From an uncultured Bacilli bacterium (GTDB lineage Bacteria > Bacillota_I > Bacilli_A > RF39 > UBA660): a DNA stretch of 47,701 nucleotides. The stretch is from assembly GCA_944363595.1 (NCBI GenBank), contig CALVUN010000006.1:1-47701 (forward strand), given 5' to 3'. The translations under genes and the position numbers were made by a program. Shown piece after piece: positions 3,088 through 20,802 of this stretch. Position 1 is the stretch's first letter; every line of letters starts with the position of its first letter. The notes beneath the pieces are model-generated. The model was not told the DNA's origin. It saw nothing but the letters and a program-made list of their open reading frames with translations, and searched no databases.

Positions 3088-3521
3088 ATGAAAAAAACTA
3101 TCATAGGTATTATTACCTTAGTTGTCATTTTAGGTATAGCTATCTTTGCTATTTTTAAAGATGACTCTAAAGCCAAATTACAAAAAATCACTTTAGCAGA
3201 AGTAACCCATAGTATCTTTTATGCCCCACAATATGCCGCTATTAGTGAAGGATACTTTGAAGATGAAGGTCTTGAAATTGAATTAGTCTTAACACCAGGT
3301 GCCGATGCCGTTATGGCAGCCGTACTATCAGGTGATGTTGACATTGGTTTCTCTGGAACTGAAGCAACCATCTACGTCTATAATGGTGGCGAAAAAGATT
3401 ACGTCCAAACATTCGCTGGTTTAACACAAAAAGATGGGTCATTCTTAGTATCGAGAGAACCATATGAAAACTTTACCCTTGAAGACTTAAAAGGAAAGTA
3501 TGTCATTGGTGGAAGAAAAGG
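3088..3521 (+). CDS. ytlA: NitT/TauT ABC substrate-binding protein, 5' half of a split gene
   Basis: AEVTHSIFYAPQY motif; ends ...IGGRKG, then reads HRM* in element DNA (stop at 3534). Confidence 0.85.
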
Positions 3522-3543
3522 ACATCGGATGTAAAACTTATAA
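3502..3543. repeat. Left attachment site of element 1
   Basis: GTCATT-N12-GG-a-CATCGGATGTAAAACTTATAA. Confidence 0.85.
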
Positions 3544-3570
3544 CATTTTTTTAAACTAAAAGAAACCTTA

Positions 3571-4761
3571 TTAGGCTTCTTCAATTATTTTCTTTAATCT
3601 ATTTATTTGTCTATTTAAAAGAACACATAATCTATATATTCTTTTATCAGATATTTTAGTAATACTTTGATACTTATGTAATAACTTATCAAATTCTTCA
3701 GGTATATCAGATAGTTTTTCTACATCTATTCTTTTAATATTATGAACTACTTTAATAATTTCATCAAATGGTTTTACCTCGTAAAAAAATCTTCCATGTC
3801 CTGATATGATTACTTCTTCTTCATCATAATATGGAATATTTAAAGCCATACCATTATCAAATATAGGAGTAACATCTAACCATTTTAGAGTATTAACATC
3901 TCTTATAATACCAAAGTTATTTAAGTGTCTATCTTCATTCATGATAAGAAAATCTAAAATATACATATTTTCTACTTTTTCTCTAGCATTAAAAATATCG
4001 TTTTTCTCAAGACATTTAATATATTCTTCATAATCTTCTTCACTATCATATCTTTTCATATCATTTCTTATTTGATAGGCTGTAATAAGTTCTGTATCTT
4101 TAGTTATAAAACAAGGACATTTAGATACTACGGTATCTTTATAAACATCTAAAGTATAAGGAACATGATTAAAACCTAATCTATCACATATCATAGATGC
4201 TAAAACTTCATTGAATGGTTGTAATATTTCATTTTTATAACCACCTTTTAATAGGTATCTTGTACCATCTTCAATAATCCATGCTTTTTTTAACATACCA
4301 TCAGTGGTATTATTAGGTGTTATAAGAGAAGTTTCTTTTTTTACTATCTTACTATTAAGTGAAAGTGAGGCTTCTAAAAACTCAGCATAATCAAAATCAT
4401 TATCAAAAAAATTAATATCATCATACTTTATATTACTGTTAAAGGGTTTTAACCAATATTGATCCGATAAAGATAAACCGAAAGCTTTATCTAATAATTC
4501 AGTTGGAGCACTTATATCTAGACGATGTAATAATAAATCTAATTTGTCTCTCCAAGAAGGAATACCTCTTCCTCTAAACCACTCCGACAAATTTGTTCTA
4601 AAAAATGTATCATTTATATCATCTTTAATATAAAAACTCTTTAAAATATAGGGAGCATAATCAATATTCTTAACTTCTATAATTCTATCAAAAAATTTAG
4701 AAACTGTATTATATTCTGCAACTAATACTTCTGTATTTTTATTCATTAAAATACATTTCAT
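3571..4761 (-). CDS. HipA-like Ser/Thr kinase domain protein
   Basis: DGMLKKAW...YLLK, NEDRHLNNFG and PIFDNG kinase motifs; AAGGTG RBS before ATG 4761 (ORF track 4767). Confidence 0.8.
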   Translation of the reverse strand: MKCILMNKNTEVLVAEYNTVSKFFDRIIEVKNIDYAPYILKSFYIKDDINDTFFRTNLSEWFRGRGIPSWRDKLDLLLHRLDISAPTELLDKAFGLSLSDQYWLKPFNSNIKYDDINFFDNDFDYAEFLEASLSLNSKIVKKETSLITPNNTTDGMLKKAWIIEDGTRYLLKGGYKNEILQPFNEVLASMICDRLGFNHVPYTLDVYKDTVVSKCPCFITKDTELITAYQIRNDMKRYDSEEDYEEYIKCLEKNDIFNAREKVENMYILDFLIMNEDRHLNNFGIIRDVNTLKWLDVTPIFDNGMALNIPYYDEEEVIISGHGRFFYEVKPFDEIIKVVHNIKRIDVEKLSDIPEEFDKLLHKYQSITKISDKRIYRLCVLLNRQINRLKKIIEEA

Positions 4762-4821
4762 AACCACACCTTCTTCCTAATGTAATATGTATTATTATAC
4801 CATATTTGCCTATATTTTTCA

Positions 4822-18804: not shown

Positions 18805-19621
18805 ATGAATCAAGATAAAATAATAAAATATTCAATAATGAAACTATAAGAACTGTGTGGGATAAAGAAAAAAAGTATTATATAAGTATTATTGATCTTA
18901 TTGGTGTATTAGCAGAAAGCGATAACCCAAGAAAATATTGGTCAGTTATGAAAACCAGATTAAAAAAAGAAGAAAACGAGTTGGCTACAATTTGTAGTCA
19001 ACTGAAATTAAAAGTTTCTGATGGAAAATATTATAATACTAATGTATGTGATATTGAGGGTATGTTTAGAATAATTCAATCAATTCCTAGCAAAAATGCT
19101 GAACCTATTAAACAATGATTAGCTAGTCTTGGTAAAGAAAAAATTGATGAAGTATTTGATCCTCCATTAACAATGCAAAGAGCAATAGATACATATCGTG
19201 CTAAAGATTATGATGAAACTTGGATTGCTAAAAGAATTAAAGGCATTCAAGAAAGGAAAAAACTAACTGATGTTTGGAAATATGGTGGCATTGAAAGTAA
19301 TTTAGAGTATACAATGCTTACGAACAAAATAAATAAAAGTTGGTCTAGATTTACGGCTAAGCAATATAAACAATATAAAGAATTAAGAAAAGAATCTTTA
19401 AGAGATAATATGACTGATATAGAAATAGCACTTACTGATTTAGGAGAACTTACTACTCGTAATATTGCTTTATCAGAACATCATGAAAGATTTAAAGAAA
19501 ACCTTAAAGTTACTCAAAGAGGTGGACAAGTTGCAAATGATGCAAGAAAATCATATGAACAACAAACTAAAAGCCTGCTATGTCAAATCAAAATGCACTT
19601 AATTATCAATACATAGAATAA
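18805..19621 (+). pseudogene. Bro-N/phage antirepressor-like pseudogene
   Basis: IRTVWD...PRKYWSVMK...IPSKNAEPIKQ*LA...SLRDNMTDIE; 5' frameshift, in-frame TGA at 19116-18, 3' frameshift. Confidence 0.8.
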
Positions 19622-19660
19622 AAATAATAATAACTCTAAAATATTAAAAAATAATAAAAA

Positions 19661-19689
19661 GTGTCTTAACCATATTCAAAGAGTTGCTT
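19661..19689. repeat. Right attachment site of element 2
   Basis: GTGTCTTAACCATAT followed by the TCAAAGAGTTGCTT core. Confidence 0.85.
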
Positions 19690-20018
19690 TAATCAGAACA
19701 CTAGCTACTAATCCAGATATACTTCTTTTAGATGAAGCATTTTCAGCTTTGGATTATCAAACAAGACTTGCCGTTTCTGATGATGTCTACCGAATCATCA
19801 AAAAAGAAAATAAAACCACAATTATGATAACTCATGATATAAGTGAAGCCATATCAATGGCAGATCGCATTATAATATTATCTCATCGACCTTCCACCAT
19901 TAAAAAAGAATTAAAAATAGAACTTACAAATAAAAGTACACCTATTGAAAACCGAAAATGCAAAGAATTCCCTAAATACTATGAAGAAATATGGAAGGAG
20001 ATAGATTACCATGCTTAG
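19685..20018 (+). CDS. ytlC: NitT/TauT ABC ATPase, 3' part of a split gene
   Basis: ALIRTLATNPDILLLDEAFSALD (Walker B/D-loop) and ITHD H-loop; joined gene is 759 bp from 7198. Confidence 0.88.
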
Positions 20019-20802
20019 TCATGACTATCAAATTTACTTAAAAAAACAAAAATTAAATAAACTATATATTAAACTAACTCAAATAGTTATTCTAATAAGT
20101 TTCTTAATAATATGGGAATTATTAGCGCACTATGAAATAATAAATACATTTATCTCATCATCTCCAAGTAGAATAATAAAAACTATATATGAATTATACC
20201 AAAGTAACAATCTCTTTCATCATATATGGGTAACCATCTATGAAACAATAATAAGTTTTGGTATAGGGACAATATTAGGTACGCTTATTGCAATCATTCT
20301 ATGGTGGAACAAATTCCTATATAAAGTTTGTGATCCTTACCTAACAATAATTAATAGTTTACCAAAAGTAGCATTAGGCCCCATCATTATCATTTGGGTA
20401 GGAGCAAATATTAACTCCATTATTGTAATGGCACTATTAATTTCAGTCATTGTAACAATCATTACTGTTTACAATGGTTTTGAAGAAACTGATCAAAACA
20501 AAATTAATCTCTTAAAATCGTTTAAAGCAACAAAATATCAAATTCTAAAATTAGTAGTTTTACCTAGCAGCTATAGTACTATCATAAGCAGTCTAAAAAT
20601 AAATGTTAGCATGTCATTAATTGGAGTTATCATGGGAGAATTTCTCGTTTCCAAAGAAGGAATTGGTTACTTAATAATGTATGGTTCTCAAGTATTCAAC
20701 TTAGATCTTGTCATGGGAGGTATAATTATTCTTATGATTGTATCATATCTAATGTATCTATTAGTTATGTATTTAGAAAAAATACTAATCAAAAACGATT
20801 AG
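20011..20802 (+). CDS. ytlD: NitT/TauT ABC permease
   Basis: SLPKVALGP and GVIMGEFLVSKEGIGYLI motifs; overlaps the ATPase stop. Confidence 0.88.
   Translation: MLSHDYQIYLKKQKLNKLYIKLTQIVILISFLIIWELLAHYEIINTFISSSPSRIIKTIYELYQSNNLFHHIWVTIYETIISFGIGTILGTLIAIILWWNKFLYKVCDPYLTIINSLPKVALGPIIIIWVGANINSIIVMALLISVIVTIITVYNGFEETDQNKINLLKSFKATKYQILKLVVLPSSYSTIISSLKINVSMSLIGVIMGEFLVSKEGIGYLIMYGSQVFNLDLVMGGIIILMIVSYLMYLLVMYLEKILIKND

Follow-up and report, generated by a model that had tools for sequence, protein, structure and literature searches.

How can a transporter operon serve its host when two of its three genes are each split by a separate recombinase-bearing element? This question is raised by a 47,701-nucleotide (nt) contig of an uncultured bacterium of the Bacilli (CALVUN010000006.1), which was analysed over its whole length and is referred to below as the window. 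It carries genes for a binding protein, an ATPase and a permease of an ATP-binding cassette (ABC) importer; the binding-protein gene is interrupted by element 1 and the adjacent ATPase gene by element 2. This 47.7-kb contig, complete in the window, belongs to a genome of 1.25 Mb in 83 contigs, which is 91.6% complete and has a G+C content of ~27%. Removal of the two elements restores both reading frames, insertions recur at seven sites in the same operon across the host family, and the split genes are as well conserved as unsplit ones. On balance, we consider it probable that both elements are excised precisely and under regulation in the sporulating mother cell, which would restore an importer acting late, in the manner of the skin, SPbeta and gin elements.

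Two elements split one transporter operon

The N-terminal half of the binding-protein gene reads to ...GRKG and meets a stop codon (3532-3534) three codons into unrelated DNA, and the frame picks up again at 6647/6648 (GMPEM...) and ends at 7211 (Table 1). Precise removal of element 1 joins 145 and 187 residues into a protein of 332 amino acids (aa). The three intact operon proteins of genome G002 served as the reference that was mapped onto all loci, and the two halves match residues 3-147 and 145-332 of its binding protein, with no residue lost between them. The open reading frames (ORFs) and the fit to G002 thus confirm the cut at GRKG|GMP, the open halves and the restored length that a preliminary description of this DNA had given. 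A GG core (3520-3521 and 6645-6646) marks the two ends of element 1, and the imperfect inverted repeats that flank it agree, by our own reading, at 15/18 positions. The ATPase gene breaks inside the ABC signature motif (...LSGGMRQRVA) and then runs into a TGA codon. Here, a 14-nt direct repeat, TCAAAGAGTTGCTT, at 7614-7627 and 19676-19689 bounds element 2. The two gene parts match residues 1-139 and 136-248 of the G002 ATPase without a gap, and the restored protein has 252 aa; a cut inside LSGGMRQRV|AL with open parts and a product of ~250 aa had been described. The permease gene is intact, and the earlier statement that it is free of stops is correct.

Each element encodes its own large serine recombinase (LSR). 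Recombinases 1 and 2 both have the domain composition of LSRs and keep the Y-x-R-x-S serine motif, and the serine is invariant in the recombinase alignment. Separate intact LSRs and different attachment (att) sites had been claimed for the two elements, and this holds, one site having a GG core with inverted repeats and the other a 14-nt direct repeat. An intact second copy of the operon had been named beforehand as a finding that would speak against a switch; no second copy of the binding-protein or permease gene was detected in the 1.25-Mb genome by tblastn (E <= 1e-5).

In B. subtilis, the ytl genes are arranged in the order binding protein, ATPase and permease, which is also the order in the window, and to our knowledge they are not interrupted. 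The parts are those of NitT/TauT-type systems, namely an NMT1 binding protein, an ATPase and a BPD_transp_1 permease, and the likeness is one at family level. Judging from sequence, we infer that the product of the operon is an ABC importer of the NitT/TauT type, comparable to that of ytlA-ytlC-ytlD, and that its genes may be orthologous to those of B. subtilis. A homolog search on the identity of YtlD was of no help, as the 120 close relatives listed carry one generic name only. The substrate of the YtlA-YtlC-YtlD importer is not known (PMC11466899).

Table 1. Features of the split operon and of the two elements within the window (. no strand).
Feature	Position	Strand	Evidence or remark
Operon promoter	3037..3066	+	TAACA, 16 nt, GAATATAATA; family-wide sigmaK-type motif
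Binding-protein gene (NMT1/THI5-like), N-terminal 145 codons	3088..3522	+	PF09084 profile 5-96 of 216
Element 1 (~3,125 nt), family site S3	3522..6646	.	GG core, imperfect inverted repeats
HipA-like kinase gene, element 1 cargo	3571..4767	-	PF07804 E 8.8e-7, slightly short of curated cut-off
Large serine recombinase 1, 520 aa	4822..6384	-	Resolvase + Recombinase + Zn_ribbon_recom
Small ORF 1, 34 aa	6423..6524	-	Own ribosome-binding site, directly upstream of recombinase 1
Binding-protein gene, C-terminal 187 codons + stop	6647..7211	+	PF09084 profile 111-212
ABC ATPase gene, N-terminal part	7198..7627	+	PF00005 profile 2-118 of 137
Element 2 (12,062 nt, one 14-nt repeat copy included), family site A1	7628..19689	.	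Direct repeat ends
111-aa ORF, element 2 left end	7737..8072	+	No family; common to G046 element, 77% identity over 82 aa
Type IV coupling-protein-like gene	9171..10529	-	PF02534 E 5.6e-37
AraC-type regulator	10619..11095	+	Open
Metal module: two P-type ATPases (725 aa with HMA domain; 625 aa) and ArsR-type regulator, all open	12027..16657	-	
Small ORF 2, 42 aa	16940..17065	+	Directly upstream of recombinase 2
Large serine recombinase 2, 532 aa, DUF4368 tail	17086..18684	+	Resolvase + Recombinase + Zn_ribbon_recom
Bro-N gene remains	18855..19616	+	Broken into 18855-19118 and 19173-19616
ABC ATPase gene, C-terminal part	19676..20018	+	Matches intact G002 ATPase
Permease gene, intact in window	20011..20802	+	Split near residue 205 in other genera

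Recurrence of the insertions and selection on the split genes

The host family comprises at least 200 genera of uncultured gut Bacilli with genomes of 0.5-1.6 Mb, which appear in public records under labels such as uncultured Bacilli, Mollicutes, Tenericutes, Clostridium sp. CAG:302 and CAG:762, and Acholeplasma sp. CAG:878. A permease match is present in 153/201 family genomes (source genome counted), and 155 operon loci were scored, namely the window, 151 loci from 150 family genomes and three loci from outside the family. Insertions recur at seven sites: S1-S4 in the binding-protein gene, A1 (inside the signature motif) and A2 (just past the H-loop) in the ATPase gene, and P1 in the permease gene. 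Elements 1 and 2 of the window occupy S3 and A1, respectively. The survey of relatives for site occupancy, proposed in the preliminary description, finds 61 of the 155 loci occupied; 47 have one occupied site, 12 have two, 2 have three, and 94 are empty. Among the 112 loci that can be scored at all seven sites, 32 have one occupied site, 6 have two and 1 has three (39 occupied), and 73 are empty. S3 is occupied in 10 of the 118 loci scorable there, and A1 in 20 of 141, with contig breaks at A1 in 5 more. The window's combination of S3 and A1 is also found in G070, and the uniqueness of adjacent double elements that had been implied is refuted by the 14/155 loci with two or three elements. In an independent set of 80 metagenome contigs, many of them labelled human gut, 10 have occupied sites.

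Forty-six insertions are complete (A1 12, A2 10, S4 9, S3 6, P1 4, S2 3 and S1 2) and range from 2.3 to 12.3 kb. Exactly one LSR is encoded in each (46/46), at a position and in an orientation typical of the site; for instance, the recombinase gene lies on the operon strand in 12/12 complete A1 elements. No other gene of at least 60 aa is universal across the 46 insertions, and most of the apparent gene families are antisense frames of the recombinase. Orthologs of recombinase 2 (56-83% identity) adjoin the C-terminal part of the ATPase gene in 11 other complete A1 elements, and orthologs of recombinase 1 (77-80% identity) are found at the same site in G152, G078 and G090. Element 1 and the same-site element of G078 are colinear, with 77% nt identity. 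A search for the longest direct repeat works at A1, where it returns cores of 8-14 nt in 9/12 elements in a no-indel register. It fails at sites with a 2-nt core, where chance AT-rich repeats win, and a protein-level breakpoint test was used instead. Genome G005 has two operon copies, the main copy (L033, contig C7) being intact and a divergent second copy (L281, C12) carrying an A1-site element; a relative of recombinase 2 in this genome (76%) was considered as an off-site case and rejected, as it sits at A1 of the second copy. On one metagenome contig (L342), an LSR 79% identical to recombinase 2 is encoded ~1 kb past an occupied A1 junction, on the opposite strand.

Both pieces of the split gene are stop-free and the breakpoint is gapless in 45/46 insertions, and the exception fits an extra insertion at S3. 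For comparison, 2/109 ATPase, 1/132 permease and 0/95 binding-protein genes are disrupted among the unsplit complete genes. With the permease as the yardstick of conservation, the residual identity of split genes is +0.34 for the ATPase (19 split versus 86 unsplit, p 0.78) and +0.17 for the binding protein (16 versus 76, p 0.78), conservation being no lower in split than in unsplit genes. In the sister species G001, both sites are occupied, one by an S3-type and the other by an A1-type element. One of its contigs begins 75 nt inside the end of the S3-type element and runs through the C-terminal half of the binding-protein gene and the N-terminal part of the ATPase gene into the end of the A1-type element, and a further contig begins 86 nt inside the other end of the A1 element. 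At the element ends, likeness between the window and G001 is limited to the 25-30 nt beside the junctions. The ratio of nonsynonymous to synonymous substitution rates (dN/dS) between the two is 0.063 for the binding-protein C-half (synonymous rate dS 0.85), 0.04 for the ATPase N-part (dS 0.75) and 0.02 for the ATPase C-part (dS 1.43), compared with 0.031 for the uninterrupted permease (dS 1.43). The split pieces are therefore under strong purifying selection that matches that on the permease, and the dN/dS check suggested in the preliminary description gives no sign of relaxation.

The G001 bin contains two versions of the inter-element segment (L189 on contig C2 and L190 on contig C46), one with 91-94% and the other with 72-74% protein identity to the window. 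On C2, the N-terminal half and the promoter are 99-100% identical to the window and recombinase 1 is 91% identical, next to a distant C-half (72-74%). This contig may be either a recombinant, formed through the shared element, or chimeric, and is not used as support. An interpretation of G001 as a simple mosaic had to be modified, because another contig proved to carry a second version that is consistently closer.

These data also bear on plain insertional inactivation, in which site-specific elements would permanently knock out a dispensable operon and the insertions seen would be young ones, left behind as the elements hop to fresh hosts. The elements do move horizontally: recombinase and host identity are barely correlated (Spearman 0.29 for A1, -0.01 for S3, 0.13 for S4 and 0.11 for A2), and some pairs of recombinases share 80% identity although the permeases of their hosts share 46%. 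This weak correlation rules out that the elements have been passed down vertically from the family ancestor, and they are mobile elements and not fixed domesticated switches. Because the two identities hardly correlate, horizontal spread is real and the age of any single insertion uncertain; individual insertions could have arisen recently, in which case open halves would carry little weight. Permanent inactivation would also agree with the mobile-element cargo (the metal-resistance module, the coupling-protein gene, the HipA-like gene and the Bro-N remains), the ISL3 transposase fragments just downstream, the failure to find the operon in 48/200 family genomes searched and the lack of an excision junction among the 15 joints listed from assembled run contigs (see below). 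However, it does not predict that the halves stay open in 45/46 insertions with undiminished conservation, or that a sister species is occupied at both sites with dN/dS values of 0.02-0.06 at dS 0.75-1.4. Nor are the spreads very recent, since no two same-site recombinases among the sampled genera are closer than ~90% identity. Moreover, seven recombinase lineages converge on three genes, and the smallest elements (2.3-3.3 kb) encode little beyond the recombinase and a small ORF, hence offering no benefit for which they would be retained. We therefore regard insertional inactivation as unlikely.

Candidate recombination unit, promoter and proposed excision

Small ORFs of 24-70 aa that have a ribosome-binding site and lie directly upstream of the LSR gene were taken as candidate partners, and such an ORF is present in 31/46 complete insertions and in six of the seven site groups. 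Both elements of the window have one. Small ORF 1 is conserved in 6/6 complete S3 elements, the small ORFs are conserved within each site group, and none has a Pfam family. A complex model of recombinase 2 (alignment of 11 sequences) with the product of small ORF 2 (alignment of 6) scores 0.73, compared with 0.15 for the best control, a mark that is reached by 58/80 solved complexes and 2/110 mismatched pairs. Between the three runs, at least 84% of the contacts are shared, and the partner has a predicted local distance difference test (pLDDT) score of at least 72. The modelled contacts lie in recombinase residues 372-401, just past the zinc ribbon, and 486-532, in the DUF4368 tail. The model thus supports binding of the small ORF 2 product to recombinase 2, and we infer that the small ORFs are candidate recombination directionality factors. 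Upstream of the small ORFs, the sequence CATAnnnT[AT], a -10 box of the mother-cell type that has no clear -35 element, is found in 18/30 cases, compared with 63/713 control genes; it precedes the small ORF in 6/6 S3, 7/8 S4, 4/5 A2 and 1/2 S1 elements. Five of the ten complete A2 insertions (L035, L070, L084, L100 and L109) have no small ORF that could be found upstream of the recombinase gene, and in these the conserved N-terminal motif of the recombinase lies only 90-130 nt from the extracted edge (60 nt of flank included). The recombinase promoter of these five elements, and perhaps the start, may come from across the junction.

The promoter of the operon itself was compared across the family. 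Upstream regions of 65 operons were collected, of which 54 have an anchorable -10 box and 53 were counted in the logo. It shows C at position -17 in 42 sequences, A at -18 in 36, a 16-nt spacer and then (G/T)(C/A)ATATAATA, with C in 28 and A in 25 at the position directly 5' of ATATAATA. The G of the sigmaA -35 element is present in just 3/53. The combination AC-N16/17-CATAnnnTA occurs in 24/65 operon upstream regions and in 6/713 control genes of the source genome; the Fisher values for this motif and for the spoIVA cross-table below overstate the case, because related promoters and genomes are not independent. SigmaK promoters have a spacer of 16-17 nt. The family motif fits the B. subtilis sigmaK consensus, KCACM / GCATANNNTA, as listed in Table 4 of PMC3416734. 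The core sporulation gene table of that source also places ytlA, ytlC and ytlD in the sigmaK regulon (PMC3416734), and by this listing the statement, made in the preliminary description, that the three genes form a mother-cell sporulation operon in B. subtilis holds; the three are not mentioned in the main text of Eichenberger et al. 2004. When 52 orthologous upstream regions were combined into a matrix, it gave 54 matches in the source genome, the best of which is the promoter of the window. The other 53 are mostly intragenic or precede unannotated small ORFs and are too noisy to define a regulon, and no clean motif was seen by eye upstream of yabG, spoIVA, the sigK-like genes or spo0A in the source genome.

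As for the sporulation machinery, a search for spo0A, sigE and sigK had been called for, and the source genome encodes Spo0A (with Spo0A_C), SpoIVA, YabG and two sigK/sigE-like sigma factors, one of which scores 296.5 bits against a sigK cut-off of 298.65. The dpaA gene was not found in this genome. In a hand tabulation of the 200 other family genomes, the operon is present in 147/172 with spoIVA and in 5/28 without it. The spoIVA gene of the source genome is itself split, at ...SIH|MIK..., into pieces that lie on separate contigs (C68:876-2162 and C52:13807-14139, both on the minus strand), and an LSR gene (C52:14069-15727, minus strand) is found directly beside the C-terminal piece. Across the family, spoIVA is in two or three pieces in ~20/173 spoIVA-positive genomes, the source genome included.

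Regulated excision would then proceed as follows. In the vegetative cell and in the forespore, which form the germ line, the elements would stay integrated and the transporter would be off, a state that would carry no cost, provided that the mother cell needs the transporter only at a late stage. During sporulation, each recombinase and its small partner would be produced in the mother cell, each element would be excised precisely, and the 332-aa and 252-aa frames would be restored. Subsequently, the operon could be read through to the permease gene, both excisions being required. The minimal unit of each element would consist of the att sites, an LSR gene at one edge and the gene for the 34- or 42-aa protein just upstream, and seven recombinase lineages would have specialised on conserved stretches of the three genes, spreading horizontally as well as vertically. 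The preliminary description had called this a DNA-level AND gate, in which the transporter is made only after two regulated excisions. Its structural part stands, both genes being split and no spare copy being present, and excision itself was not seen; the wording probably overstates the logic, because one and the same developmental signal probably serves as both inputs.

A reversible or condition-triggered switch that is independent of sporulation has also to be weighed. The comK prophage of Listeria is such a switch, operating by active lysogeny, and in the present case excision in vegetative cells would turn the transporter on and reintegration would turn it off. A recombinase with a putative directionality factor is the kit this requires, the promoter of the window is readable as a sigmaA promoter, and the small-ORF units at A1 and P1 are without the CATA motif. 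In addition, SPbeta excision is reported to answer to stress as well as to sporulation (PMC6957869). On the other hand, the family promoter lacks the sigmaA -35 TTG (G in 3/53) and keeps the AC of sigmaK promoters, the operon tracks spoIVA, and the same family splits spoIVA, a mother-cell gene. Furthermore, no replication gene was recognised, so an excised element would usually be lost in a dividing cell. In our view, a switch outside sporulation is decidedly improbable.

Several observations nevertheless weigh against excision controlled by sporulation, in addition to the mobility of the elements described above. In the promoter of the window, A replaces the C of the consensus, and the sequence reads well as a sigmaA promoter, TTAACA-17-TATAAT. 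The sigmaA-like promoter noted in the preliminary description is thus confirmed and overlaps the sigmaK-type motif, and sigmaA may also use it, TATAAT being embedded in the family motif. The CATAnnnT[AT] box is found in 0/6 A1 and 0/3 P1 small-ORF units. The operon was not found in 25/172 spoIVA-positive genomes, and spoIVA-negative genomes tend to be smaller, so the joint loss may reflect general genome reduction. The LSR gene beside spoIVA has an in-frame TAA (C52:14450-14452), and if this is real, the source strain may not complete sporulation. Finally, the predicted excision joints 3521>6647 and 7627>19690 are not among the 15 joints listed from assembled Logan contigs of four public runs (X1, X2, X5 and X6; three studies, chicken-gut and dust metagenomes); 57 further joints exist beyond these 15, and assembled contigs yield no verdict on excision.

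The same run contigs do speak to the integrated state. They span three of the four junctions, namely the left junction of element 1 (X5, 3027-3627) and the left and right junctions of element 2 (X1, 6894-7669 and 19395-19843, with 0 differences). This bears on an artefact, in which a mis-assembled or chimeric metagenome bin would have joined unrelated contigs. The bin is indeed fragmented into 83 contigs, and in the sister bin G001 one segment is present in two versions and one contig is a mosaic; yet independent runs reproduce three of the four junctions, the same architecture is found in dozens of independent assemblies, and chance would not produce att repeats and a restoration of the frames of such precision. 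We consider an assembly artefact highly improbable. No empty sites of the same species were found among metagenome contigs, the best being 79% identical in the C-terminal half of the binding protein. In all four runs, the summed contig depth over element 1 (3501-6505) is higher than over the flanking gene pieces. This depth is not a copy number, because it sums contigs of other organisms, and related elements may sit in several organisms of the samples.

Known systems, cargo and neighbouring features

Elements that carry serine recombinases and interrupt sigK (skin), spsM (SPbeta) and other mother-cell genes are excised during sporulation, and gene-intervening elements are thus already known as a kind. 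The skin elements of B. subtilis and C. difficile, SPbeta, vfbin (in spoVFB) and vrin (in spoVR) are prophage-derived and excised in the mother cell. The elements described here resemble them in the interrupted coding sequence, the LSR gene at the edge next to a gene half and the separate small (here candidate) directionality factor. They would also share the late mother-cell host gene and the decayed cargo, although the cell type is deduced here and the decay is partial. The skin directionality factor Skr is encoded by an ORF that overlaps the 5' end of spoIVCA (PMC6957869). In contrast to the skin class, a three-gene transporter operon takes the place of a regulator or spore-envelope enzyme as the target, insertions recur at seven sites with up to three elements per operon, and phage structural genes were not observed; identity to the nearest phage recombinases reaches 31% at most. 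A closer parallel in some respects is gin, a non-phage intervening element in gerE of B. cereus ATCC 10987, whose recombinase GirC needs GirX, a protein of 42 aa without known motif (PMC5595907). Recombination in gin takes place in a short shared core of 9 nt, similar to the 14 nt at A1, but gin has three recombinase genes, with girX apart from girC, whereas each element here has one recombinase gene, immediately preceded by the small ORF.

Several independent elements within one gene cluster, all removed in a terminally differentiated cell, are also a feature of the heterocyst nif, fdxN and hupL rearrangements. In Calothrix sp. NIES-4101, for instance, nifBHDK is in 13 parts and is restored by seven excisions and two inversions (PMC11249958 and PMC4874684). 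Those rearrangements belong to another phylum and another developmental programme, and their excision has been proven experimentally. The best NCBIfam match of both recombinases of the window is the XisF family, far below its cut-off. Among mobile elements, Tn4451 (TnpX) and Tn5397 (TndX) are mobilisable or conjugative transposons of clostridia that use serine recombinases. The elements here share with them the LSR, the DUF4368 tail (recombinase 2), resistance cargo and horizontal spread, and we know of no such transposon in a frame-restoring position in a developmental gene. No description of ytlA, ytlC, ytlD or spoIVA as rearranged genes was found in the literature searched, and supplementary tables outside that search may list more. 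As far as searched, the target operon, the seven sites with distinct recombinase lineages, the multi-element operons, spoIVA as a target and the host lineage are new.

Beyond the window, it is a plausible but still tentative proposal, to which we give somewhat less credence than an even chance, that this mother-cell operon is, throughout a very large family of gut Bacilli with reduced genomes, a common landing pad for at least seven lineages of recombinase and micro-partner, so that the importer is gated at the DNA level by one to three excisions and spoIVA is gated as well. If true, sporulation-linked genome editing would be routine and multi-input in these bacteria and not a curiosity of model strains, and a set of small orthogonal pairs of recombinase and directionality factor with known att sites would be at hand. 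If the excisions are developmental, mother-cell rearrangement would reach an uncultured and very diverse gut lineage and a transporter operon as a class of target, and the operon would be the first sporulation counterpart found to the multi-element heterocyst nif rearrangements. It would also argue that bacteria labelled Mollicutes or Tenericutes do sporulate and suggest that the uncharacterised YtlACD-type importer acts late in the mother cell. The compact units of a recombinase and a partner of 28-65 aa, with targets in conserved protein motifs, are candidate genome-engineering tools.

The cargo of the two elements differs. In element 1, the HipA-like kinase has 62% aa identity to its copy in G078, which belongs to another genus, and 93% to the copy on contig C2 of G001, with a dN/dS of 0.147. 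Being open, conserved and constrained to this degree, it looks functional, perhaps in addiction or defence. In element 2, the coupling-protein-like gene is the sole conjugation-type gene recognised and was not found in the other complete A1 elements. No relaxase or mating-pore genes were recognised among the ORFs of at least 80 aa in element 2, and it therefore does not classify as an integrative and conjugative element. The metal module has no near match among PLSDB plasmids. The Bro-N gene, broken here, is a single open frame of 287 codons in G046, and the ~0.9 kb between 11100 and 12026 is without any ORF of at least 80 aa. The earlier remark that much of the cargo is decayed thus applies to the Bro-N gene and to this ORF-free stretch, but not to the P-type ATPase, ArsR-type, AraC-type and HipA-like genes, which are open.

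Directly 3' of the permease gene lie two fragments of an ISL3-family transposase gene (20821-21096 and 21184-21537, minus strand). An Rfam scan shows no riboswitch near the operon; its sole matches in the window are a class B RNase P RNA (32731-33070, minus strand) and a T-box leader (43344-43558, minus strand). Elsewhere in the source genome, further LSR genes are found on contig C50, beside an ORF with two LysM domains, on C62, next to a small resolvase gene, on C41, at the contig end, and on C17, where the LSR gene adjoins a DpnII fragment and a MazE/MazF-like gene pair, the latter named by eye only.

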